In this document: in pieces, positions 3,971 to 64,000 of the stretch
How positions within the stretch are numbered: position 1 is the first letter of the stretch
Layout: every line of letters starts with the position of its first letter
DNA from: Flaccisagitta enflata
Taxonomy: Eukaryota
Length of the DNA: 64,000 bases
Assembly: GCA_965153355.1 (NCBI GenBank)
Contig: OZ231126.1
Span: 47,740,001 to 47,804,000, forward strand
Reading direction: 5' to 3'
Program-made: the position numbers and the translations under genes
The notes under the pieces: generated by a model
What the model saw: only the letters and a program-made list of their open reading frames with translations
Told to the model about the DNA's origin: nothing
The model's database searches: none

Positions 3971-5076
3971 TTAAAACGCGAAGAGGAGCAAGAAGGCCAT
4001 CATCAAACAGAAAAGTCCCATGGCTTCTGAAAGAGCGAAACCCAAAATGGCGTAGGAGAAAAGCTGTTGTTTCAAGGAGGGATTACGCGCGTAACCGATG
4101 ATCAAAGAACCGAAAACGCTACCGATACCGGCACCTGGAGGAGTAAAGAGATAGAAAACTATTTTGAACATCACCACTATAGCAAAGATAAATCCCTATT
4201 ATCTCATAGTAGTCATCATCAACGCCGTCAAGGACGTCACGGTCGTCGTCATATTCACCGGTATTCAAATTATCATCGTCATCATCTTTGTTGTACTTTT
4301 GTAGTTATCTACATCGTAATCATCATCGTCATCATTATCTTTATTACCATCATCATCATCTCCATTACCACCAACACCATCTCCATTACCACCATCATCA
4401 TCATCATCATCATCATCGTCGTGGTTGCCATGTGATCATCGTCATGGACGTAATCGAGAACTTACCAGAACCAGCGACTCCAACGGTGGCGGCGCCGGCG
4501 CCGATATACTTGGCGGCGGAGTCGATGTCCAAAGTGCGGGCGCTGGTTTGGAAGCTTCTCACGAGGTTGGGCGCACCGACGGTCAGCGACGAGGACAAGC
4601 CCTGGTAAGAGGCGATTGGGGCGGCGGTGGCGGGAGTGGCAACGACAACGCCTTCCGTGGAGTCCAAGCGCGACCCGAGGCTGCTAGCCAATGGGCGAAC
4701 CGCAGAGCGAGAGCTCTGGGAAGCCTGAATTGAATGGTTAACGATATCATTTGAAAAACCGCGTGAACCGAATAAAAGAGAAAGTAACTGAGTACCAAAC
4801 GAAGCGGGCAGGGCAGGACACGGAATGCATTAGAAAAGAGCGGGAGGTGGTGAAATAAAAAACCGACCCAAAAGGCCCGATAAATATTTATGTTATCGAC
4901 AGTTTAACGGATCAATGGACGGACGGACAGATACACCGACATAAGTATGTGGGATCGGTGGTATCATTTCGACATCTGATATCTTTGTTAAAGATACCCG
5001 AACAAAATTGTTCTACTCCATGAGTGACCAAACTGTTACCTACCATCATGCGAGCGGCGGCAGTGCAGGCCAACAT
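3971..5076 (-). CDS. ATP5MC: Mitochondrial ATP synthase Fo subunit c precursor, 3 coding exons (5076-5044, 4724-4466, 4134-3971), 151 aa
   Basis: Joined exons read [23 protein letters not shown]...[85 protein letters not shown]. Introns are GT-AG (donors gtaggt, gtaagt) with consistent phases; 456 nt total. Confidence 0.96.
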
Positions 5077-5362: not shown

Positions 5363-5564
5363 TCAATGGACATTCCTAGCGGTAGGCGGCCACGAGAAGG
5401 GCAAAGTAAAGTCATGAGCATCGACGTCTTCCAGGCCTCGAGAAGTTGCCCCCCGATGTCGACGCCAAAAGAGCAAGCGTGAGAGCAAATTGCCAACTTC
5501 ATCGGAAAACAAACGGCTCGTAATCGGTAACAGAAAGGCGAAACGTCGCGGCAAATACTTTCAT
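5363..5564 (-). CDS. Possible terminal exon of an AGC-kinase-like (RPS6KC1-like) gene
   Basis: Non-repetitive, GC-richer segment after acceptor ttcttttctgcag (cag at 5565-5567). One frame reads FSDEVGNLLSRLLFWRRHRGATSRGLEDVDAHDFTLPFSW, resembling kinase subdomain XI (S.EA..LL..LL...R.G....EDIK.H.FF..W). That frame has a TGA just after the obvious acceptor, so the phase is unresolved. Confidence 0.3.
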
Positions 5565-50949: not shown

Positions 50950-53851
50950 ATTAAATATTGCAAAAGAGTTAAAGATTGTTGCGGGACAGTGGTAAAAACT
51001 AGTTATAAGGTAGTAAAAACTAAATATTGCGTGGTAGTTGATCAAAAGCATTCTTGAAGGTATTGAGTGAGCTTGATTGTCGCATTTCAGATGGGAGACT
51101 GTTCCATGTTTGGGGTCCTCTTACACAAAAGAAGTTTTTTCTAAGGTCTAGTCTTGCACGAGGAACTCTCACTGGCATGTATGATTGCTGTTGACGCGTG
51201 ATTTGTCTTTCAGGGTTGTCAGTTGTGAACATGGTGGTGAAGTCAATGTCCCAATTACCATGCAGATATTTAAACATTTCTATTGCATCTCCTCTAATTC
51301 GTCTCTCTTCTAGTGTTGTCAGTTGAAGCTGTTGTAGCCTCTCTGGATAAGAGCCATGTACATCACTTATGCGCCGGGTGGCTCTATGCTGAATAGATTC
51401 AAGTACATTTATATCTTTGGCAAGCCATGGGGACCATGCAGATACAGCATATTCCAGATTAGGTCGAACAAACACTTTGTATATTTGCAGCATGACGTCC
51501 CGAGTGTAGCATGAAAATGATCTATTTATTCTACCAAGAACTTGGTTTGCTTTTTTAGCTGCAATGGCACATTGCAAACCTGGTTTACATGAATCGTCAA
51601 TAAAAATACCAAGATCTCTTTGATCAGAAGTGGTGGAAATGATTTGACCGGCCATGCGGTATTTGAACTTTTGATTATGATATCCTAGATGGATGATGAA
51701 ACACTTACTAGCATTAAATTGCATACCCCATTTAATGCTCCATTCTTCCAGTCTGCTTATTATTGTTTGCATTTCTGCAGCAGTAGAATTGTCGTTTACA
51801 ATTTTTGCAATTTTTGTGTCATCTGCAAATTTTGACATAAACGCCTCAAAATCACCTAGACACAAATCAATGTCATTTATGAAGATGATGAACAGGATTG
51901 GGCCGAGTACAGAGCCTTGCACAACAGAACTAAGTACATCAATCCATTCAGATACTGTGCCATTCACTGAAACCCTTTGTTTTCGGTTATGCAGCCATGA
52001 ACTGATCCAAGCTATAACTTTGGGGTTTATTTTGTGACATTTCAATTTTTGTATCAGTCTCTGGTGTGGGACTTTGTCAAATGCTTTTGCAAAGTCTAAG
52101 TAAAGGATATCTACTGAATGACCAGAGTCTAGTTGTTTTGTGACATAATCTAAATAGGTCACCAAATTTGTGGTTGTGGACCTTTTGGGCATAAACCCAT
52201 GCTGGGATGGTTTTATCAGTTTATTGGAAATGAGATGCGATATAATGCTTTCTTTTAACATTCTCTCTAAGAGTTTGACTACAACACTTGTTAGTGATAT
52301 AGGTCGGTAATTTGCTGGATCACTTTTTGAGCCTTTTTTGAATATAGGTATGACGTGGGCTACTTTCCATTCCTCAGGTAGTTGAGCACTATCAAGTGAC
52401 TCTTTAAAGAGCAGATACAATGGGTAACTGATTTCTTCAGCCACCTCTATAAGGATTCTTTGGCTAATTCCATCAGGCCCTGGAGAACATGACTTTTTCA
52501 TATGTTGAAGCACCTCGACTATCCTCCGGCGAGTAATTATTGGTTCATCCATTTCAGTGCAAGTGAAATCTGGTGGTTGTTCAGGTAGTTGTGGATCTTC
52601 AGCTGTGAACATTCTAGAATAGTGGTTATTTAGAATATTTGCCGTTTCTCCATCATCGTTGCAAAAGTTGCCACTCTCATCTTTGACGGGGCCAACACTA
52701 ATTTTATTACCTTTTTTAGTGTTTAAGTATGCATAGAAGAGCTTAGGATTTGTTTTCGCATTTTTCGCTATGTTAACTTCATGTCTATGCTTGGCCTTTT
52801 TTACAGCTTTGTGAACCTTTTTTTCAAGAAGTTTGTAAACAAGAAAATCATTTTGATTTTTTGTTCCTCTGTACCTTTTCCAGGCCGCTCTTTTTTGCCT
52901 TATTAGTGTCAGTGTCTCTTGTTTTAGCCACGCTGGACGCTTCATTTGTTTCACTGATTTTTTTGGAACATATTTATGGCAAATTTCCGAGAACATGGCC
53001 TCAAATGTAGCCCAATTAGCTTCAATATTGTTAGTGAAATGGTCCCTCCAATGGATTGTGCTCAGCTCATACTTCATTTCCTGAAATTGTGCCTTTGCAA
53101 AATTCCAGACAGTGTGTTTTGGAATCTTGATAGTGCTATCCGCTTGGATTACTACCTCAAGTGCAGTATGGTCACTATTACCAAGTTTTCCCGCTTCCTT
53201 GAGACTCTGGATCAAATTGGGAACATTTGAGAGAACAAGGTCTAAAATATTTCCTGCTTGGTGTGTAGGAAATGTAACATGCTGATTAAGATGTTTTTCT
53301 GAGAGCACATCCAAAAACTCCTGAGTGTGTAGGGTGCCAGTAAGCAGTTCCCAATTGATATCAGGATAGTTAAAATCTCCAACAATGATTGAATTGTCCT
53401 TCACTGAGTTGATGAAGTTGTTTATTTTTGAATTATTTTCAAGTGATGAGTTTGGTGATCTATACACTATGTACATATGTAAGTCTTCCTTGTCCAGTTT
53501 GATTCCAAGGGAAATGGCTTGAATAATATCGAGAGGGGTTGGTATTTCATAGCAGTTTAATTCTTTCTTTGTGTAAACAATTATACCCCCTCCTCTACCA
53601 TCCGTAGTGTCTTGTCTGTCTCTTCGTATAAGTAGGTTGTATCCATCGATTATCAAAACCGAGTTTTCTATGCTATCATTTGTCCATGTTTCTGTGATTG
53701 CCACAACATCATAATTTGTTTCTACTAAAATTGCTTTTAATTCACTGATTTTCCCAGCAAGACTACGAGCATTGGCATAGAAGAGTTTCAGTTCTTTCTT
53801 TTTCTCACTTTCTTCACCCGGTAGTCTCCTGGGCGTCCCACGATTATGTGA
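50731..53851 (-). mobile_element. 5'-truncated CR1/L2-group LINE
   Basis: APE-RT ORF2, a 3' UTR with the stem-loop gagactcatagagtctt, and a (CTAAA)n tail at 50731-50760; no ORF1. Confidence 0.92.
51020..53851 (-). CDS. LINE ORF2: apurinic endonuclease plus reverse transcriptase (about 940 aa open frame, start lost)
   Basis: Endonuclease motifs LFYANARS, ITETW, GGG, VYRSP, GDFN, LDL and SDH; RT motifs YRPISLTS, QHGF, DFAKAFDKVPH, QGSVLGP and FADD; C-terminal RPNLEY..WSP and WNSLP. Confidence 0.95.
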   Translation of the reverse strand, partial: SHNRGTPRRLPGEESEKKKELKLFYANARSLAGKISELKAILVETNYDVVAITETWTNDSIENSVLIIDGYNLLIRRDRQDTTDGRGGGIIVYTKKELNCYEIPTPLDIIQAISLGIKLDKEDLHMYIVYRSPNSSLENNSKINNFINSVKDNSIIVGDFNYPDINWELLTGTLHTQEFLDVLSEKHLNQHVTFPTHQAGNILDLVLSNVPNLIQSLKEAGKLGNSDHTALEVVIQADSTIKIPKHTVWNFAKAQFQEMKYELSTIHWRDHFTNNIEANWATFEAMFSEICHKYVPKKSVKQMKRPAWLKQETLTLIRQKRAAWKRYRGTKNQNDFLVYKLLEKKVHKAVKKAKHRHEVNIAKNAKTNPKLFYAYLNTKKGNKISVGPVKDESGNFCNDDGETANILNNHYSRMFTAEDPQLPEQPPDFTCTEMDEPIITRRRIVEVLQHMKKSCSPGPDGISQRILIEVAEEISYPLYLLFKESLDSAQLPEEWKVAHVIPIFKKGSKSDPANYRPISLTSVVVKLLERMLKESIISHLISNKLIKPSQHGFMPKRSTTTNLVTYLDYVTKQLDSGHSVDILYLDFAKAFDKVPHQRLIQKLKCHKINPKVIAWISSWLHNRKQRVSVNGTVSEWIDVLSSVVQGSVLGPILFIIFINDIDLCLGDFEAFMSKFADDTKIAKIVNDNSTAAEMQTIISRLEEWSIKWGMQFNASKCFIIHLGYHNQKFKYRMAGQIISTTSDQRDLGIFIDDSCKPGLQCAIAAKKANQVLGRINRSFSCYTRDVMLQIYKVFVRPNLEYAVSAWSPWLAKDINVLESIQHRATRRISDVHGSYPERLQQLQLTTLEERRIRGDAIEMFKYLHGNWDIDFTTMFTTDNPERQITRQQQSYMPVRVPRARLDLRKNFFCVRGPQTWNSLPSEMRQSSSLNTFKNAFDQLPRNI

Positions 53852-54463
53852 ACGCGACTCTACACCCCGCTTTGTCAGTCCGCCGGTCCATCCATCCGGT
53901 CTCCATCATAACTTTTTTGTCATTCACGCTGTGACTCACTTTGTCCGTCCGTCCGTCGGTCCGTGTCCGTCACACACTTTTTTTTGGTTTTGGGTTTTTG
54001 GCTTCACTGCTCCTGCCCAAATGATCTGGGGACCTCAATTAGGGCCCCTGCCCACCCGCACGCGACTGGGGTAGCCGTGTATCCGGCCTTGTTGGCGTTT
54101 ATGGGGTTTTTGGCTATACCGCTCCTGCCCAAATGCTCCACTGACCTCAAATATGGCCCCTGCCCACCCGCACACAACTGGGGTAGCCATGTATCCGGCC
54201 TTGTTTATTCTTGATTATGAATCCACAAACACAGAAGAATGTTTTGCCATCTTTTATCTCTGAAATTTCAATGTACTAGATACCCCGGGGTACCCCAATT
54301 GACTACCCCTAGGGGTATAAACCCCCAAAATGATTTTTTTTGTTCAAATTTTTTTCTGATCTGATTCTTTAAGTTAAAATTTAAAGATTGACACCAGAAT
54401 TGTCCATTTACTACAAAAAATGGCTGAGATATGGCTTTTTAAAGTTTTGGGGGTACCCGGGGC

Positions 54464-57043: not shown

Positions 57044-57906
57044 GACCCGGCTACTCAGTCTGACCCGGCTACTCAGTCTGACCCGGCTACTCAGTCTGAC
57101 CCGGCTACTCAGTCTGACCCGGCTACTCAGTCTGACCCGGCTACTCAGTCTGACCCGGCTACTCAGTCTGACCCGGCTACTCAGTCTGACCCGGCTACTC
57201 AGTCTGACCCGGCTACTCAGTCTGACCCGGCTACTCAGTCTGACCCGGCTACTCAGTCTGACCCGGCTACTCAGTCTGACCCGGCTACTCAGTCTGACCC
57301 GGCCACTCAGTCTCACTGCACTCAGTCTCACCTGCTACTCAGTCTCACCCGGCTACTCAGTCTCACCTGGCTACTCAGTCTCACCCGGCTACTCAGTCTC
57401 ACCCGGCTACTCAGTCTCACCCGGCTACTCAGTCTCACCCGGCTACTCAGTCTCACCCGGCTACTCAGTCTCACCCGGCTACTCACTCCCAACTGGCCTG
57501 ACCCGGCTACTCAGTCTCACCCGGCTACTCAGTCTGACCCGCTACTCAGTCTGACCCGGCTACTCAGTCTGACCCGGCTACTCAGTCTGACCCGGCTACT
57601 CAGTCTGACCCGGCTACTCAGTCTGACCCGGCTACTCAGTCTGACCCAGCTACTCAGTCTGACCCAGCTACTCAGTCTGACCCAGCTACTCTGTCTGACC
57701 CAGCTACTCTGTCTGACCCAGCTACTCTGTCTGACCCAGCCACTCAGTCTGACCCAGCCACTCAGTCTGACCCAGCCACTCAGTCTGACCCAGCCACTCA
57801 GTCTGACCCAGCCACTCAGTCTGACCCGGCTACTCAGTCTGATCCGGCTACTCAGTCTGACCCGGCTACTCAGTCTGACCTGGCTACTCAGTCTGACCCG
57901 GCTACT
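57044..57906. repeat. 18-bp minisatellite (GACCCGGCTACTCAGTCT)n
   Basis: About 47 highly similar tandem units arranged in variant blocks. Confidence 0.96.
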
Positions 57907-57987
57907 TATTGCATACTGTATATATATTAACTTGATCTTACTTAGTTTAATAGGTTCTAGTATAGCTAAAATTTAGTTCAACCTAGT

Positions 57988-58545
57988 TGTCATAGGGCAG
58001 CAATAATAAGATGTTTTTAAATGCTACAATATGAATTTATTGAATTAAGAAGTTAAGTATATTTAGCATATGATGAATCTTGGTTGTGGTAATAAGTAGT
58101 TTTGAGTTGCTACTAAAGACTAAGACAGAATTTAATTCTGAAGTCTGTCCTAAGGAGAATGGAAGATATAAGAAAAGACAACCTTACTATTTAGACTTTA
58201 TCTAGTCTTAGCCAAGATGAATATCTGCTGGCTATAAAGACTGATGGTCTCACAACTTAGTCTATATGAAAACTCAAGACTTGTGATACACCTTAGTCTC
58301 TTTCCTCGAAAGCTCAAGATGAAATTTCTTCCGTCTAGTAGAGCTCAAATCCAGGAAGGATCACTTCTTAGCTATTGGGGGGGTTTTTATACTACGTAGC
58401 CTTCCACGAGACCGTTGCGTGAAATTTCTCGAAGAGTCACGCAACCGATTTTGGGTTTCCCCAAAATCTAAAAATAGCAACATAGGAATGTTGGTCTAAG
58501 GAGGGTAGAGAGTGGAAGGAGAGAGGGGTTCCAGATTATTTAACA
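57988..58545 (-). repeat. Candidate 3' LTR (558 bp)
   Basis: Minus strand: purine tract GAGGGGAAA(TT) at 58546-58556, then TGTTAA..., TATAAAA (58385-58391), AATAAA (58036-58041) and ...TGACA at the end. The partner LTR is not in the window. Confidence 0.5.
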
Positions 58546-59191
58546 AATTTCCCCTCATGATCTTAATATTGATCGTTCCTGATCATGATTACCTAGATTC
58601 ATCACTAGCATGCAATTACAAATGATCATAGTGCTTACAATAATTGGTTAGTCATACCATCACATTTGTTTCTTTTCTTCCAACAAAAGTGATCAAGATT
58701 AGTACACTAATAATTTGTTATCCAAAACAACAAACAAGCTGTGGATCAACAAATTTGTGATAAGAATTCATCATTGAAGACAGCAACGCTATAAGGCAAT
58801 ATTTTTATTGGTCTTTAGCTTATATGATTTTTTATTCTATTTTCAACAACATATTGCTATATTTTTATTTATTTTATTTATTTTTTTTTTTCTTTTTCAC
58901 TTTATGCTATTGTACATAACTGAGCATTTTGTCAGTATGTTATGCTTTCACACGACTGAGCACATCGTCATAACATATTGACACTAAAAACAATGAGCAA
59001 CGAATCAAATGCATCAATTTTTAAGCGCAATTAACAATTGAAGCGCGTAATGTAACAAGTCACACATTTAAATCTGGAATCTTCTATTGGTTTCTGGCTT
59101 TAAATTCAGTCTCTATTCAATATTTTACTTACGGTTGCAAACTCGAACTTAAAAATGTTTAAGAAAGTCTACAATATTTCCGGGAAAAATA

Positions 59192-59270
59192 TTGGTCAGT
59201 GGTGGGATTCGAACCTATGCCTCCGGAGAGACTAGTGTCAGTGCCTATCAGTGCCACTCGGTTTAATCAC
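59192..59270 (-). pseudogene. tRNA-Leu-derived pseudogene
   Basis: Minus strand CACTAGTCTCTCCGGAGGCATAGGTTCGAATCCCACCACTGACCA then ATATTTTT matches the variable arm, T-arm and acceptor half of metazoan tRNA-Leu. The 5' half keeps CCGAGTGG but the anticodon arm is scrambled. Confidence 0.75.
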
Positions 59271-59357: not shown

Positions 59358-60476
59358 ATGACGGTGTTCAAACTTAGATTTCGTTCGCGGAAGCAGAAAA
59401 AATTTCTGCTGAGAGAAAAATCTACTTTAGCTCCGGTCACAACATCTAGTCATTCAAACTTGAACTTCACGACAAGGCCAGATGTAAATGTTACCTCCAC
59501 ATCTCCACGGCCTGATACGAGTTCATCATTGTATAAAGTTACATCTACTCCTACGCCATTGATGGTATCATTGATTTTGTCTCTGGTTGTAAATTCTACT
59601 GTTCCGCCGAGCACAACGACTGGACTTCAGAATTTGACATATGCAACGCAAAAGCGTCCTAAGGTTTCATTTGGGTGTATTGATTCATTTCAAATTCGAT
59701 TTCTTTCCAAGCTTTGCTTGTTTTGGTATGTTTTTGTTTTGTTTTTTGTTTTTGTTTTTTTTTTTTTTTTTTATTGTTTTCTGATTACCGTTTTCGTCTT
59801 CAGATATACCCTGTGGCAGAAACTACGGAGCTACCTCCGAATATTTCCACGACTACTGGACATCAGAATGAAACGGCCTCAAAAATGATGTTTGTTGCTT
59901 CTGTTAAGCATTCAAATTTACAAGCTGATGTCAACTCCATTTGCATGTAAATATTCGTGAAATGAGATCTATTTCCCATGAGAAGAAACCAAATACCTAT
60001 ATTATATGTTTTTTCCTTCTTTTCTTTTTAGTGTCGTGGTATATCTGGTATTGGTGTCCTTTGGTTTTCGCACGTGTAAAGGACGAGCAAAATCATCATT
60101 TATGGCTCATAGGACAAAAGATAAAAGTAATACGATACCCAATCAAATGACGTGCCTTTTATACATATATATATATATATTCTTTATTATTTGAGTCTAA
60201 AGAACCTTCTTTCGGAATTCAGGTTCAGACTGTGAAAATGCTGACGACATTGGAGATCTAAATGCTGTTTCGGATCCAGTGCCGGTTGACACTAGTGATT
60301 ACAGTGGCCTAAATGCTGAGACTGACGTTATTTTAGAAGGAATTGAATCGATAAGACTGGAGGAATTTAAGCTTCCGGAGGAAGCACCCCCTAAACGTCA
60401 CGACTTTAGTCTACCTCCTCCCCCCATACCACTCGACCTAAACATTTTTTCCATGAGCGCGTCATATAAAAAATGA
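59358..60476 (+). CDS. Predicted 4-exon gene (59358-59663, 59804-59946, 60032-60126, 60223-60476), 265 aa, mucin-like single-pass membrane protein, antisense to pol
   Basis: Three GT-AG introns (140, 85 and 96 nt) with pyrimidine-rich acceptors join four separate ORFs in frame (phases 0, 2, 1). Product has an S/T/P-rich region, hydrophobic SICIVVVYLVLVSFGF followed by RTCKGRAK, and an acidic Pro-rich tail. The start codon is uncertain. Confidence 0.55.
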
Positions 60477-60748: not shown

Positions 60749-63274
60749 CTACCACAAGGCCGATTCGAGGACGTGGACCTTCTTTTTCAATTCGTCCACA
60801 TCGTCTTCCAACTGAATAATGCGCAATTCCTGATTCTCCAGCGCACGTATTCTTGACTTTAGAAGCACCAACTGTTGAGAGGAAGGGAAAAGAAAAGAAA
60901 GGGAATTATTACCACACCTAGATATAAGCAATGACTTATATAAACTGTGAAAGATAATAATCCAATCAATGTATTCTCAGGGAGCGATTCTAATCACAAA
61001 CGATTGCGTTTTGAACAGGCCTTTCGGTCGCTCACTACATTCATTCGCTCACACCGCTCACTCCGCTCATTCGCTTGCACCGCTCACTCTGCTCATTTGC
61101 TTGCACCGCTCACTCTGCTCATCTGCTCTGCAGTGCTTTGCTTCACTCCGCTCGCTCTACTCGCTCGCTCCGCTCATTCGCTCTGCTCATGGGCTCGCTC
61201 GCTCACTTTCCTCACTCCCTCGTGGGACAGTTGATATTCTTCAAATATGTGTTTACGCTGTGATCGCGTTTTTGGTAGGCAACGTGTTTTATCTCAATTA
61301 GAAACACGCCCTTAAGAGAGGCTCAATTACTGCCATTTTAGTTTGGCATTTTATCATCAATAATCGCGCTTAATAAATGATCCCAACCATGATAGTAGAA
61401 TAATAATTCATACCCCTAGAATTACACTCTAGCTAGTCATGAACTATCCCCCGCCTCTAGGGTTACTGATAGTTTAATCTTTCTACTGGGCGCGAGACTC
61501 TCCCGGATCTCAGCAGTTTCCCATCCTTGGAATCATTTTTGCCAACTTGGCCTGGACCATCAATATTTCTATCTTCATTTTGGTCCTTATTTTCGTCATT
61601 TTCGTCATTTTCGGCATTTTCTTCCTGAATGTTTTCTTCACTGGAATCATTTTCGTCTAGATTTCCTTCCTCTAGCTTTGTATCAATATTTTCTATATTA
61701 CTTTTATCGATTTTTATGTCTCGGACATTTATCTTAGAGTATCTTTTTGTTCTATTATTTAACACTAAATAAGAGCCAGCTGAAATCTTTTTGACAATTT
61801 CAAAGTCATCAAGAAAGTTTTTGTCAAACTTAGAAGCTTTCCGAAAATTTCTTACAAGTATTTTCATTCCAGCAACTAGTTCATTATTCCTTTCAAATCG
61901 TTTATTTCCACTAAGATTATAAGATTTCCTGAATGCCTCATAGGCATTTATAGGCATGTTGCCTATAGCTTTTCTTAGCTCTTCTAAGTAAGACGTTTGG
62001 GTATCAGTCTCAACCTCTTTAAGATTTAAGAATAAATCTAAAGGTATTTTAGGCTTTTGACCTAAAAAGACAAATTGTGGTGCATACCCAGTTGTCTGAA
62101 GCACACTTATATTATAGAAGAAACAGGCCATTGCTAGGGTTACTTCATCCCATTCACTGCCATTGTCTGCGGCCATTTTGTAAATTACTCCTTTTAAGTT
62201 TTTGTTGAATCTTTCACTTAAGTTGGAAGTTGGATGATAGGAAGATATGAAGTGCAGTTTAATTGAATTTATTTTGCAAAATTCTCGTAATGCTGGTGAG
62301 TCTAACCCATTATCAGTAACTAAGGACTGGCAAAAGCCAAATCTTAAAATATACATTTTTTTAAAAGCTTCAACTATAGTAGCTCCTCTTAGGTCTGGGA
62401 TAGCCTGAGCTAGTCCATATCTAGACCAACACTCAATGCCCGTGAGGACAAAAGAGTAGCCTTCTATTGATTCATTACTTAAACGCCCAATAGTATCAAT
62501 AAATACTTTTTCATTTGGCTTGGAGGCTGTAATTTGTAAAGGAGGAACATTTCCTGTCCCACGTTGGTCAAACTGTTGACAGATTTTACATCTACTAACT
62601 AGTAATTGAAGCTGATTTAGTAAATCAAATACATAATATTTTTCCATTATATTTCTTGCGGTTTTTTCTGCACTGTAGTGACCCATATTGTCATGATAAT
62701 GATGATATAGGTCTGGTATCATATCTGGAGGTAATACTATTACTAGTCTATCATCGATTTTCCTCTTTAAGATCTTATCATCTATTTGAAATTTATTTTT
62801 ATATTTTACATAACTTTTCAACTCAGGCTCTATTATTTGATTAAACTTCGGAAATTCTCCTTTCTTCAAATATGAAAAGAACTTTTTTATGATTTCAGAT
62901 CCTTTTTGAATGGCTGGTATGTCTGTCTGGTCTGTAATTAAATTAATAGCTACCTCTGATCCCGTCGCAAATGTGCTCATCATTGGAAGCCATGAGCGAC
63001 TTGGGTCGACGTCATCTTGTCCATACTGCGCCAGTGCTTCTGACGCCGATAAATCCGGATGTGCTGCTGCTGCTGCTGCTGGTGATGGTAGTGCCGCTGC
63101 TGCGGCTGATGTCGATGCAGCAGAGTGATTTCCTCCAATCCACGGAGCAACGACTGCAGTCGCCGTTGGTGCCATCAAGGTGGCGTTTTTCATCGTCTTC
63201 ATTTTGGGAGCTCTTTTTGTCCACGTGGTCTTTTTCGCCCGCCACCACTCTTTTCTTTTTTCGTTCGCGGTCAT
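60749..63274 (-). CDS. Predicted 2-exon accessory ORF (63274-62954 + 60871-60749), 147 aa, basic/Ala-rich N-part plus C-terminal coiled coil
   Basis: Acceptor ttcttccaatttcag|GCAAAATG at 63280, donor GAG|gtagct at 62953, acceptor cttttcttttcccttcctctcaacag| at 60872; the join is phase 0 to phase 0. Confidence 0.5.
60980..61311. mobile_element. PIF/Harbinger-like MITE with a (GCTC)-rich interior
   Basis: TCA|GGGAGCGATTCTAAT...ATTAGAAACACGCCC|TTA; a related fragment lies at about 29630-29720. Confidence 0.6.
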
Positions 63275-64000
63275 TTTGCCTGAAATTGGAAGAATGGTGG
63301 ATAAGTCAGTATTTTCCCCCTTTTTAAGAGTAGGTTCTTCCGAAACTACATTGCACAGTGGGGAGATTTCTTCTGCTTCTGTAGGCAAAATGCGTTTTCT
63401 AATATTTTCCCATGTTTCAGCTGAATGGCGTGATAAACTGTCAACTGGTTTCATATAATTAGAGCTGCCTTTTTTATATATCACAGTAGTATTTTCTTTG
63501 TCTAAGACTGAATCTAAAAACTCAATGAGCCTATGCTGCCTTAGATACTTGCCACTAAAACCTAATTTTAAAGACGTTAATGCCTGGCAATCAATTCTAA
63601 TTATTACCTTTGTAAACCTAAGATAGTAATAAAATTTGCGAATTGCATAGTACAAACCTAATAACTCTCTCTCTGAGCTTCCTGCCTTCCGTTCTGTCTC
63701 ATTGAAAGCTCTACTTCCAAATGCAATTGGTACTTCTAGCCTTTTTATCTTTTTACTAGGTAATTCTATATCTTTTATTTGTGATAGGGAGTAGCCTACG
63801 CCCTCACCAGAAGAATCACAGGTCACTATCATTTCAGTATCATAAGTTGGGTGAGCTAATTGGGTAGCATTAACTATTTGACCTCTGACCTTATCAAAGG
63901 CCTTTGTATGTTCTTCTGTCCAGTAACTTTCAATTCTTTCGGGAAATTCTTTTTTAAGTAGATTATACAAGCATTTTACTGTTAAGCCGTATCCTTCACA
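61463..64000 (-). CDS. pol: Gypsy pol, C-terminal part: RT connection, RNase H, insert, integrase (open to the window edge)
   Basis: RNase H motifs VTCDSS, ERELL, RIDCQAL and VDSLSR; integrase H-x4-H...C-x2-C (HDNMGH, CKIC) and DDE (FIDTIG, VTDNG, SERFN); typical RSGRVSRP C-terminus; no internal stops. Confidence 0.96.
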   Translation of the reverse strand, partial: CEGYGLTVKCLYNLLKKEFPERIESYWTEEHTKAFDKVRGQIVNATQLAHPTYDTEMIVTCDSSGEGVGYSLSQIKDIELPSKKIKRLEVPIAFGSRAFNETERKAGSSERELLGLYYAIRKFYYYLRFTKVIIRIDCQALTSLKLGFSGKYLRQHRLIEFLDSVLDKENTTVIYKKGSSNYMKPVDSLSRHSAETWENIRKRILPTEAEEISPLCNVVSEEPTLKKGENTDLSTILPISGKMTANEKRKEWWRAKKTTWTKRAPKMKTMKNATLMAPTATAVVAPWIGGNHSAASTSAAAAALPSPAAAAAAHPDLSASEALAQYGQDDVDPSRSWLPMMSTFATGSEVAINLITDQTDIPAIQKGSEIIKKFFSYLKKGEFPKFNQIIEPELKSYVKYKNKFQIDDKILKRKIDDRLVIVLPPDMIPDLYHHYHDNMGHYSAEKTARNIMEKYYVFDLLNQLQLLVSRCKICQQFDQRGTGNVPPLQITASKPNEKVFIDTIGRLSNESIEGYSFVLTGIECWSRYGLAQAIPDLRGATIVEAFKKMYILRFGFCQSLVTDNGLDSPALREFCKINSIKLHFISSYHPTSNLSERFNKNLKGVIYKMAADNGSEWDEVTLAMACFFYNISVLQTTGYAPQFVFLGQKPKIPLDLFLNLKEVETDTQTSYLEELRKAIGNMPINAYEAFRKSYNLSGNKRFERNNELVAGMKILVRNFRKASKFDKNFLDDFEIVKKISAGSYLVLNNRTKRYSKINVRDIKIDKSNIENIDTKLEEGNLDENDSSEENIQEENAENDENDENKDQNEDRNIDGPGQVGKNDSKDGKLLRSGRVSRPVERLNYQ

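Follow-up and report, generated by a model that had tools for sequence, protein, structure and literature searches.

A probable multi-intron antisense gene for a predicted mucin-like membrane protein in a clade of Ty3/gypsy elements of Flaccisagitta enflata

The locus and its host element

In the 64,000-nucleotide stretch of DNA analysed here (the window), a predicted four-exon gene lies inside a Ty3/gypsy LTR element, W, and is read against the direction of that element. W is full-length (17,132 bp, C1:47797917-47815048) and reads on the minus strand. The features are as follows, by window position.

57917..58545, minus strand: 3′ LTR of W, 629 bp, TG...CA
58546..58562, minus strand: short polypurine tract adjoining the 3′ LTR
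59195..59235, minus strand: piece of the primer tRNA-Leu (T-arm / variable arm), retained upstream of the antisense gene
59358..59663, plus strand: exon 1, basic N-terminus, then S/T/P-rich stalk (41% S/T/P, 4 sequons)
59664..59803, plus strand: intron 1, 140 nt, phase 0, non-consensus donor
59804..59946, plus strand: exon 2, end of the stalk and first turn of the hydrophobic segment
59947..60031, plus strand: intron 2, 85 nt, phase 2, interrupting the predicted transmembrane segment
60032..60126, plus strand: exon 3, predicted transmembrane core and basic patch
60127..60222, plus strand: intron 3, 96 nt, phase 1
60223..60476, plus strand: exon 4, acidic tail with a conserved L-P-x-P-P motif, TGA stop
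60749..60871, minus strand: predicted sense splice acceptor and 40-codon coiled-coil-like frame (frame region and equivalents noted to 60905)
60976..61315, no strand: dispersed genomic repeat in the 3′ region of W, with 73-80% matches in unrelated flanks
61463..64000, minus strand: pol (RNase H, integrase), from a 1540-aa frame that runs past the window with protease and reverse transcriptase (RT); pol stop at 61463
74420-75048 (window-equivalent of C1:47814420-47815048): 5′ LTR twin, 16.5 kb away

An earlier note, made from the sequence of the window alone, had placed the gene between the pol stop and a candidate 3′ LTR and had proposed that it is stable cargo of the retrotransposon. The placement is borne out. 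A search with upstream DNA found the 5′ LTR beyond position 64000, and the gene lies within an LTR pair that is 99.2% identical (4 mismatches and 1 gap) and has the same 5-bp flank at both ends, a target duplication. The duplication and the near-identity of the LTRs indicate that the empty site held no gene and that the insertion is recent. A single copy at the DNA level and host-like introns would suit an ordinary host gene that lies beside the retrotransposon or was interrupted by it. That explanation is refuted, since the gene is enclosed by these LTRs, the target duplication rules out the gene at the empty site that the earlier note had envisaged as the contrary outcome, and equivalents of the gene lie inside other elements on C2, C4, C5, and C8. 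In the searched assembly (794 Mb, 9 contigs), the antisense region of W occurs once as DNA, the other 84 matches being a T-rich simple repeat in intron 1. That a host gene was captured once, and recently, is likewise not supported, as no host copy was found and the gene is clade-wide. The blank for host copies is weak, however, because the tail exon, when searched against the genome, matched itself alone and did not retrieve the homologues in A and C (see below).

The primer binding site of W is 10 nt plus CCA complementary to the genome's own tRNA-Leu(AAG), and its pol has the Pfam order PR-RT-RH-IN, with the protease below the cut-off (E 0.0075). Upstream of pol, ORF1 of W consists of three overlapping frames with two frame breaks, real or assembly errors, and carries a BIR domain (Pfam, E 7.6e-13) and, at its C-terminus, a gag CCHC knuckle; family A has a single 2513-aa frame. 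A sister copy of W (C1:48035038-48047499, 97.5-98.7% identical) ends inside pol against a BEL/Pao-like element, and four further places in the genome hold solo or broken LTRs. A 19-20 bp tandem array (window 57050-57900) lies directly beside the insertion site.

Exon-intron model and predicted product

The joining of four ORFs through three GT-AG introns (phases 0/2/1) into 265 amino acids, as first described, was reproduced from the sequence. Judged by the sequence of the window only, other models are possible, since among 180 splice combinations a few more give open frames, of 228-300 aa. The predicted model is settled by the homologous elements A and C, which share the three intron positions and phases. 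The first donor had been called weak. It is indeed non-consensus (GTTTCA), but A and C have a donor of the same non-consensus type (GTTATA) at the same position, and this layout matches although their DNA does not align with that of W. Exon 1 of W resembles those of A and C in its similar basic start and in the phase-0 donor after Lys at its end, and exon 3 is 48% identical with both. For exon 2, at the end of the stalk, local similarity to A and C is not above that of shuffled sequences.

The W product is mostly disordered. Its six N-glycosylation sequons (residues 36, 44, 79, 92, 115, and 124) stand where the earlier note had seen them; they take up 6 of 9 Asn residues against a shuffle mean of 2.3, and 53 of 5000 shuffles reached as many. 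As a family trait, N-glycosylation does not hold, since the stalks of the other seven relatives have 0-2 sequons and sequons are not enriched in A or C; the trait common to the stalks is Thr richness. One sequon, Pro-Pro-Asn, occurs in each of W, A, C, and D. At about 16 residues, the predicted hydrophobic run of W is short. No signal-peptide exon was found in W, A, and C, whose N-termini are basic and non-hydrophobic (hydropathy of the first 12 residues -0.61, 0.37, and 0.85). An internal Met start serving as a signal peptide, considered earlier, is not supported, since nothing in the first exon of A or C corresponds to its hydrophobic stretch. Thus, the surface location of the W product is uncertain because of the missing signal-peptide exon and the basic N-terminus. 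The basic N-termini, the lack of sequon enrichment in A and C, and the hydrophobic stretches with which ORF1 begins in families W, A, and C would all fit a product anchored in an internal membrane (ER or organelle), where it would act as a scaffold for particle assembly or tune the expression of the element. This role is unlikely for the W, A, and C products; against it stand the sequon excess in W, the Pro-Pro-Asn sequon shared with D, and the signal-peptide-like exons of five relatives described below.

Pfam returned 0 families in 2 + 16 exon-level queries with the antisense products, TRP28 and the plant mobile domain being absent, and an Atlas search with the antisense product gave no match. 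No longer proteins containing the tail were found. An AATAAA follows the stop in D, E, F, and G (by eye) and not clearly in W. Of the RNA runs, X2 (6% read, host presence not shown) gave 0 reads and X1 gave five tiny contigs, none spanning the junctions, which is evidence neither way.

Occurrence across the clade

Integrase and RT searches located 13 places in the near group. Five are without an assessable 3′ region: the sister copy of W and two A-family copies (B, C8:15.23-15.24 Mb, and C4:77354662) are cut before it, C5:1080521 has an unalignable 3′ region, and C1:112594587 is placed where a contig ends. The others are W, A (C8:16865427-16882757), C (C8:15119586-15136949), D (C2:37844283-37864299), E (C5:1235230-1255066), E2 (C5:1.18-1.19 Mb), F (C4:33652498-33666559), and G (C4:1445665-1456336). 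In all eight members that keep the 3′ region, an open antisense gene of the same build lies between the 3′ LTR and pol. The models of the relatives were checked exon by exon, with boundaries picked by eye. The eight models encode 257-295 aa, have no internal stop, and have 29/29 introns that are GT-AG and phase-compatible, at carrier RT identities down to 29%. The broken frames in other copies that the earlier note had held to be possible were thus not seen, and the reading of the gene as stable cargo is supported. The C pol is frame-broken, E2 is degraded, and G has an internal deletion; the antisense genes are nonetheless open in all three.

Two architectures were seen. In W, A, and C the gene is split into four exons, the intron phases being 0/2/1. 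Those of D, E, E2, F, and G have five exons with phases 0/0/1/1 and start with a hydrophobic, signal-peptide-like exon or exon pair (judged by hydropathy). In all eight, an intron within the predicted transmembrane segment (phase 2 in W, A, and C; phase 1 in the others) is followed by the basic patch and then by a phase-1 intron before the tail exon. The stalk exons are 30-53% S/T/P, and the Thr-rich stalk is 130-195 aa long; the Thr runs in D-G overlap trinucleotide microsatellites, which are common in this genome.

The clade elements measure 14-20 kb. Seven have both LTRs, 95.5-100% identical, with 5-bp flank repeats, three of which lie within microsatellites and are therefore weak; all seven have a purine-rich stretch at the place of the W polypurine tract. 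E, F, and G sit in dinucleotide microsatellites, which hints at a target preference. The ORF1 polyproteins (L021 6760-9999, minus strand; L059 955-8493; L075 3289-8580) are 1760-2510 aa long; those of W, A, and F contain a BIR domain (apoptosis inhibitor), those of D and E do not.

The tRNA-Leu piece continues, with the T-arm, where the primer site leaves off. It matches the genome's tRNA-Leu genes exactly over 15-21 nt in W, A (L058 ~5390-5430), and C (L062 ~4930-4970). In six other regions tested in the same orientation the match was at most 10 nt, and the piece is absent from D-G. Around it, A and C agree over about 50 nt, for all that their pS is 0.61. It has the tRNA sense on the genomic RNA, and its complement is on minus-strand DNA and the antisense mRNA. 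The conserved piece could have a role in reverse transcription or as a B-box. The tRNA-like block folds no better than shuffles, and searches gave neither a full tRNA nor an Rfam match above chance. Elsewhere in the genome, at C4:75.91 Mb (L053), 18 different tRNA genes are clustered in 3 kb.

On the sense side, the strong acceptor and phase-0 helical frame after the pol stop of W were also found in C, F, and G and, by eye, in A, D, and E, the coiled-coil-like frames having 23-108 codons in these seven elements. The acceptor suggests a spliced subgenomic mRNA.

Selection, homology, and phylogeny

The antisense gene is under purifying selection. In three independent pairs, pooled dN/dS is 0.15 for A-C (bootstrap 0.10-0.22), 0.17 for E-E2 (0.09-0.25), and 0.23 for F-G (0.12-0.40; near saturation, with 371/500 replicates defined), and the A-C mismatches by codon position are 49/44/129, an excess at the third position. 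The integrase of A-C gives a dN/dS of 0.05 and a pS of 0.61, equal to that of the antisense gene, as expected if the gene and pol were inherited together.

Exon 3 of W scores above all shuffles against A and C (z 8.7 and 10.0; 0/300 each), and so does the tail exon (z 7.8 and 6.6; 0/300 each). D versus E is significant for all three exons, and F versus G likewise. A profile of three tail exons was run against 1.84 billion proteins and gave five hits; two are real (P0012 and P0011, both from short ENA contigs), and the others are long repetitive proteins. P0012, from a public metagenome, is identical to the W tail at 46/69 positions (67%). The L-P-x-P-P motif is kept in 6/6 rows of the tail alignment, in an acidic setting in W, A, C, P0011, and P0012. 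It is absent from the tails of D, E, E2, F, and G, and the tails differ between subgroups.

These results bear on whether low-complexity DNA could have yielded the frame by chance, or whether the antisense RNA alone matters. Alternative open splice combinations do exist, and the pattern detector described below matched one background tile-strand, but a dN/dS far below 1 in three pairs, the third-position excess, and a 67% identical tail in another sample largely refute this idea and leave it very improbable.

Between the subgroups W/A/C, D/E/E2, and F/G, exon similarity is mostly within the shuffle range, so that common descent across the clade rests on position and build. In the RT-RNase H tree (37 rows, midpoint root only; G, o77, and o78, which have no RT, were left out; o-numbers denote further Ty3/gypsy elements found in this genome), W, A, B, C, D, E, E2, F, and the ENA protein P0003 form one clade with support 100/99, apart from 20 other elements of the genome and from 8 database proteins. 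The best matches among named proteins reach 30% identity at most. In the JGI metagenomes and IMG/VR, no relatives with flanks were found, the single match (L122) being 26% identical.

It is possible, though I consider it the weaker case, that the antisense membrane genes of the subgroups are unrelated and were captured or evolved separately, without a single ancestor. The non-significant scores in most cross-subgroup pairs, the differing exon counts (4 versus 5) and intron 2 phase, and a similarly arranged element outside the clade (o89) are consistent with separate origins. Against this, all eight genes share place, strand, size range, the transmembrane intron, and the phase-1 intron before the tail, their carriers form one clade, and only 1/22 outgroup elements scored in the detector.

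Taken over the clade, I put the probability at about three in four that the antisense gene is a functional membrane-protein gene encoded by these Ty3/gypsy elements, as predicted from sequence comparison.

Controls and outgroup elements

The pattern detector looked for an acceptor, a hydrophobic start, a basic patch, a donor, and an upstream S/T/P-rich exon. It matched the antisense strand of 7/9 clade members (B is truncated; G was missed), a count that is not independent because the detector was tuned after the genes were known; only the low background is informative. Elsewhere it matched 0/31 sense-strand regions, 1/22 outgroup elements, and 1/54 background tile-strands.

The outgroup element o89 (C1:99.6 Mb; L089 3740-4385, plus strand), from another Ty3/gypsy clade, has a two-exon antisense arrangement in the order Thr-rich exon, phase-0 intron, hydrophobic segment, basic patch, and acidic tail. 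No close relative of o89 was found. Judged by sequence, its arrangement may reflect convergence, exchange, or chance; since it lies outside the clade, the build may arise more than once, and it hints that split antisense genes are widespread. The Thr-rich stretches of o90 were rejected as a microsatellite outside the LTRs.

The carriers have no env-size sense ORF behind pol, the longest being 268 aa. E and E2 have an extra sense ORF of 250-268 aa between pol and the antisense gene (L070 6103-6906, minus strand; L073 6277-7026, minus strand), with no Pfam match. Among the 22 outgroup Ty3/gypsy elements, 4 (L094, L095, L096, and L104) have sense ORFs of 940-980 aa after pol, which are possibly env of other families. 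The "env position" of the earlier note stands as a place, from the pol stop to the 3′ LTR, and falls as a statement about the product, which has no env features: it is antisense, 265 aa long, and without Pfam match, unlike a retroviral or errantiviral Env, whose sense-strand ORF spans several hundred aa and has a furin site, a fusion peptide, and a C-terminal anchor.

Comparison with known systems

Antisense accessory ORFs are already known from plant elements and retroviruses; judged from the sequences, a multi-intron, mucin-like version would be new. Antisense extra ORFs between pol and the 3′ LTR have been described for Grande gene23, RIRE2, Retand TRP28, PvRetro13, Boty, and Tat, and at this position they define the plant Retand lineage; the products of the plant and fungal ORFs are given as nuclear or DNA-binding (PMC7264820, PMC11963269, PMC4408406). 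Grande gene23 is reported to have its own antisense promoter, with antisense mRNA arising from the 3′ LTR side, as also in HTLV (PMC7264820). The present genes resemble those of Grande, RIRE2, Retand, PvRetro13, and Boty in place, strand, and lineage-wide retention. They differ in their 3-4 spliceosomal introns, the predicted single-pass mucin-like product, and the animal host; the main text of PMC11963269 nowhere uses the word "intron".

The product also has a likeness to sORF2 of the MDG1 group, a small sense-strand single-pass membrane protein with a polybasic patch from env-less Ty3/gypsy elements, proposed to be a transmission factor; the sORF2-like proteins described are 63-107 aa long, myristoylated, and all sense (10.1101/2025.03.14.642691). 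As in sORF2 and FAST proteins, a single transmembrane segment, predicted by hydropathy and sequence, is followed by a polybasic patch, in env-less Ty3/gypsy elements. Unlike them, the present products are 257-295 aa long, have no Gly at position 2, are antisense and spliced, and have a Thr-rich stalk of 130-195 aa.

Among retroviral antisense genes, HBZ of HTLV-1 is spliced. HIV-1 ASP and HBZ, like the present gene, lie antisense near the env region and are driven from the 3′ LTR side, which here is predicted. ASP overlaps env and HBZ is nuclear, whereas here no long sense ORF is overlapped and the element has no env. HBZ is named in PMC11963269, and ASP is found on membranes and is reported to enhance entry (PMC12568219).

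Planarian Burro is a giant Ty3/gypsy element of more than 30 kb with an N-terminal Gag, an in-frame env region, and a BIR in its ORF1 polyprotein (PMC6431247, PMC13465017). W and its relatives resemble it in large size and in a long ORF1 polyprotein with BIR (W, A, and F), and differ in measuring 14-20 kb and in the C-terminal knuckle. In the Burro text consulted, "antisense" has 0 occurrences and no antisense gene is mentioned. Rotifer Vesta/Juno, LTR elements of invertebrates, likewise have at the env position a short ORF, ORF3, for a transmembrane protein, the transmembrane nature of the present product being predicted. Unlike the W-clade gene, ORF3 has two hydrophobic regions, cysteines, a furin site, and a coiled coil, and no introns are mentioned in the available part of the paper (PMC5408684). 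No antisense spliced case appears in the parts consulted of PMC5408684, PMC13524379, and PMC8220671. More generally, a multi-intron antisense mucin-like gene in an LTR element was not found in the literature covered, mostly non-subscription papers queried without the host name; a genome paper could still mention one.

Proposed mechanism and significance

Because the sense RNA is the template from which an LTR element is copied, sense-strand introns are lost; those of the opposite strand are no splice substrates and come through copying intact. The earlier note had argued that the antisense orientation lets the introns survive retrotransposition; this agrees with the known replication cycle, and the introns probably persist because they lie on the strand opposite to the genomic RNA. 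The integrated copy would give a separate antisense mRNA from a promoter in or near the 3′ LTR, and splicing by the host would yield a single-pass mucin-like membrane protein. The Thr-rich extended part would face outside and be O-glycosylated, the basic patch fixing the cytosolic tail with its short motifs inside.

By analogy, the likeliest role of the product may be, tentatively, to aid transmission, that is, spread of the element between cells in place of env. The product would mark a plasma-membrane site, its tail would recruit cytoskeletal adaptors, and particles would pass to the neighbouring cell, a handover at a marked membrane site as proposed for MDG1 sORF2. The L-P-x-P-P motif of the W, A, and C tails resembles an Ena/VASP EVH1 ligand. 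The consensus for such ligands is wider than LPPPP. LPPPP itself is a ligand of the ENAH EVH1 domain (PMC8789275). In its fullest form, the proposal is that an ancient animal Ty3/gypsy clade swapped env for a multi-intron gene of host style, kept backwards so that its introns escape removal by reverse transcription, and that the mucin-stalk product enlists the actin machinery and passes particles between cells; this is speculative, and I regard it as rather improbable as a whole.

Ranked second, above the internal scaffold, is a real gene that alters or protects the host cell rather than moving particles, by shielding with glycans, by anti-adhesion, by receptor interference directed at related elements, or by signalling paired with the BIR of ORF1. 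This role is doubtful too. Long stalks hinder rather than help membrane fusion, and those seen here would be expected to do so. The antisense orientation would permit expression when the genomic RNA is silenced, the tails differ between subgroups, and a BIR domain is present in ORF1 of W, A, and F; the IAP region of Burro1 is reported to protect planarian stem cells (PMC13465017, citing that work). On the other side, no host homologue or known domain was found for the product, and its position is constantly env-like in a clade without env, which leaves the transmission aid as the preferred role.

Introns are normally lost from cargo in the LTR element's own reading direction. A gene of 4-5 exons under selection across about 30% RT identity would thus be a route to hold host-style genes indefinitely. 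Surveys that scan for ORFs would miss split antisense genes, as in the sORF2/FAST screen, which required short unspliced ORFs; if the present reading is true, such genes are invisible to ORF-based transposon annotation. For the question of how env-less elements reach the germline, the antisense family offers concrete candidate proteins, and it provides a search rule for other invertebrate genomes: an antisense gene with an intron inside the transmembrane segment.

Other features of the genome

The window also contains a LINE-like element with an intact 961-codon endonuclease-RT frame (51020-53905, minus strand). Just outside the 5′ LTR of W is a 255-codon intronless frame (L022 5000-5767, plus strand) with a hydrophobic segment, a basic patch, and a poly-Pro-Ser-Tyr motif, and with no Pfam match. 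Two other elements carry, behind the integrase, a sense ORF with ankyrin repeats and a SOCS box together with a Cys-rich ORF (L077 1991-4169 and L078 5329-7713).
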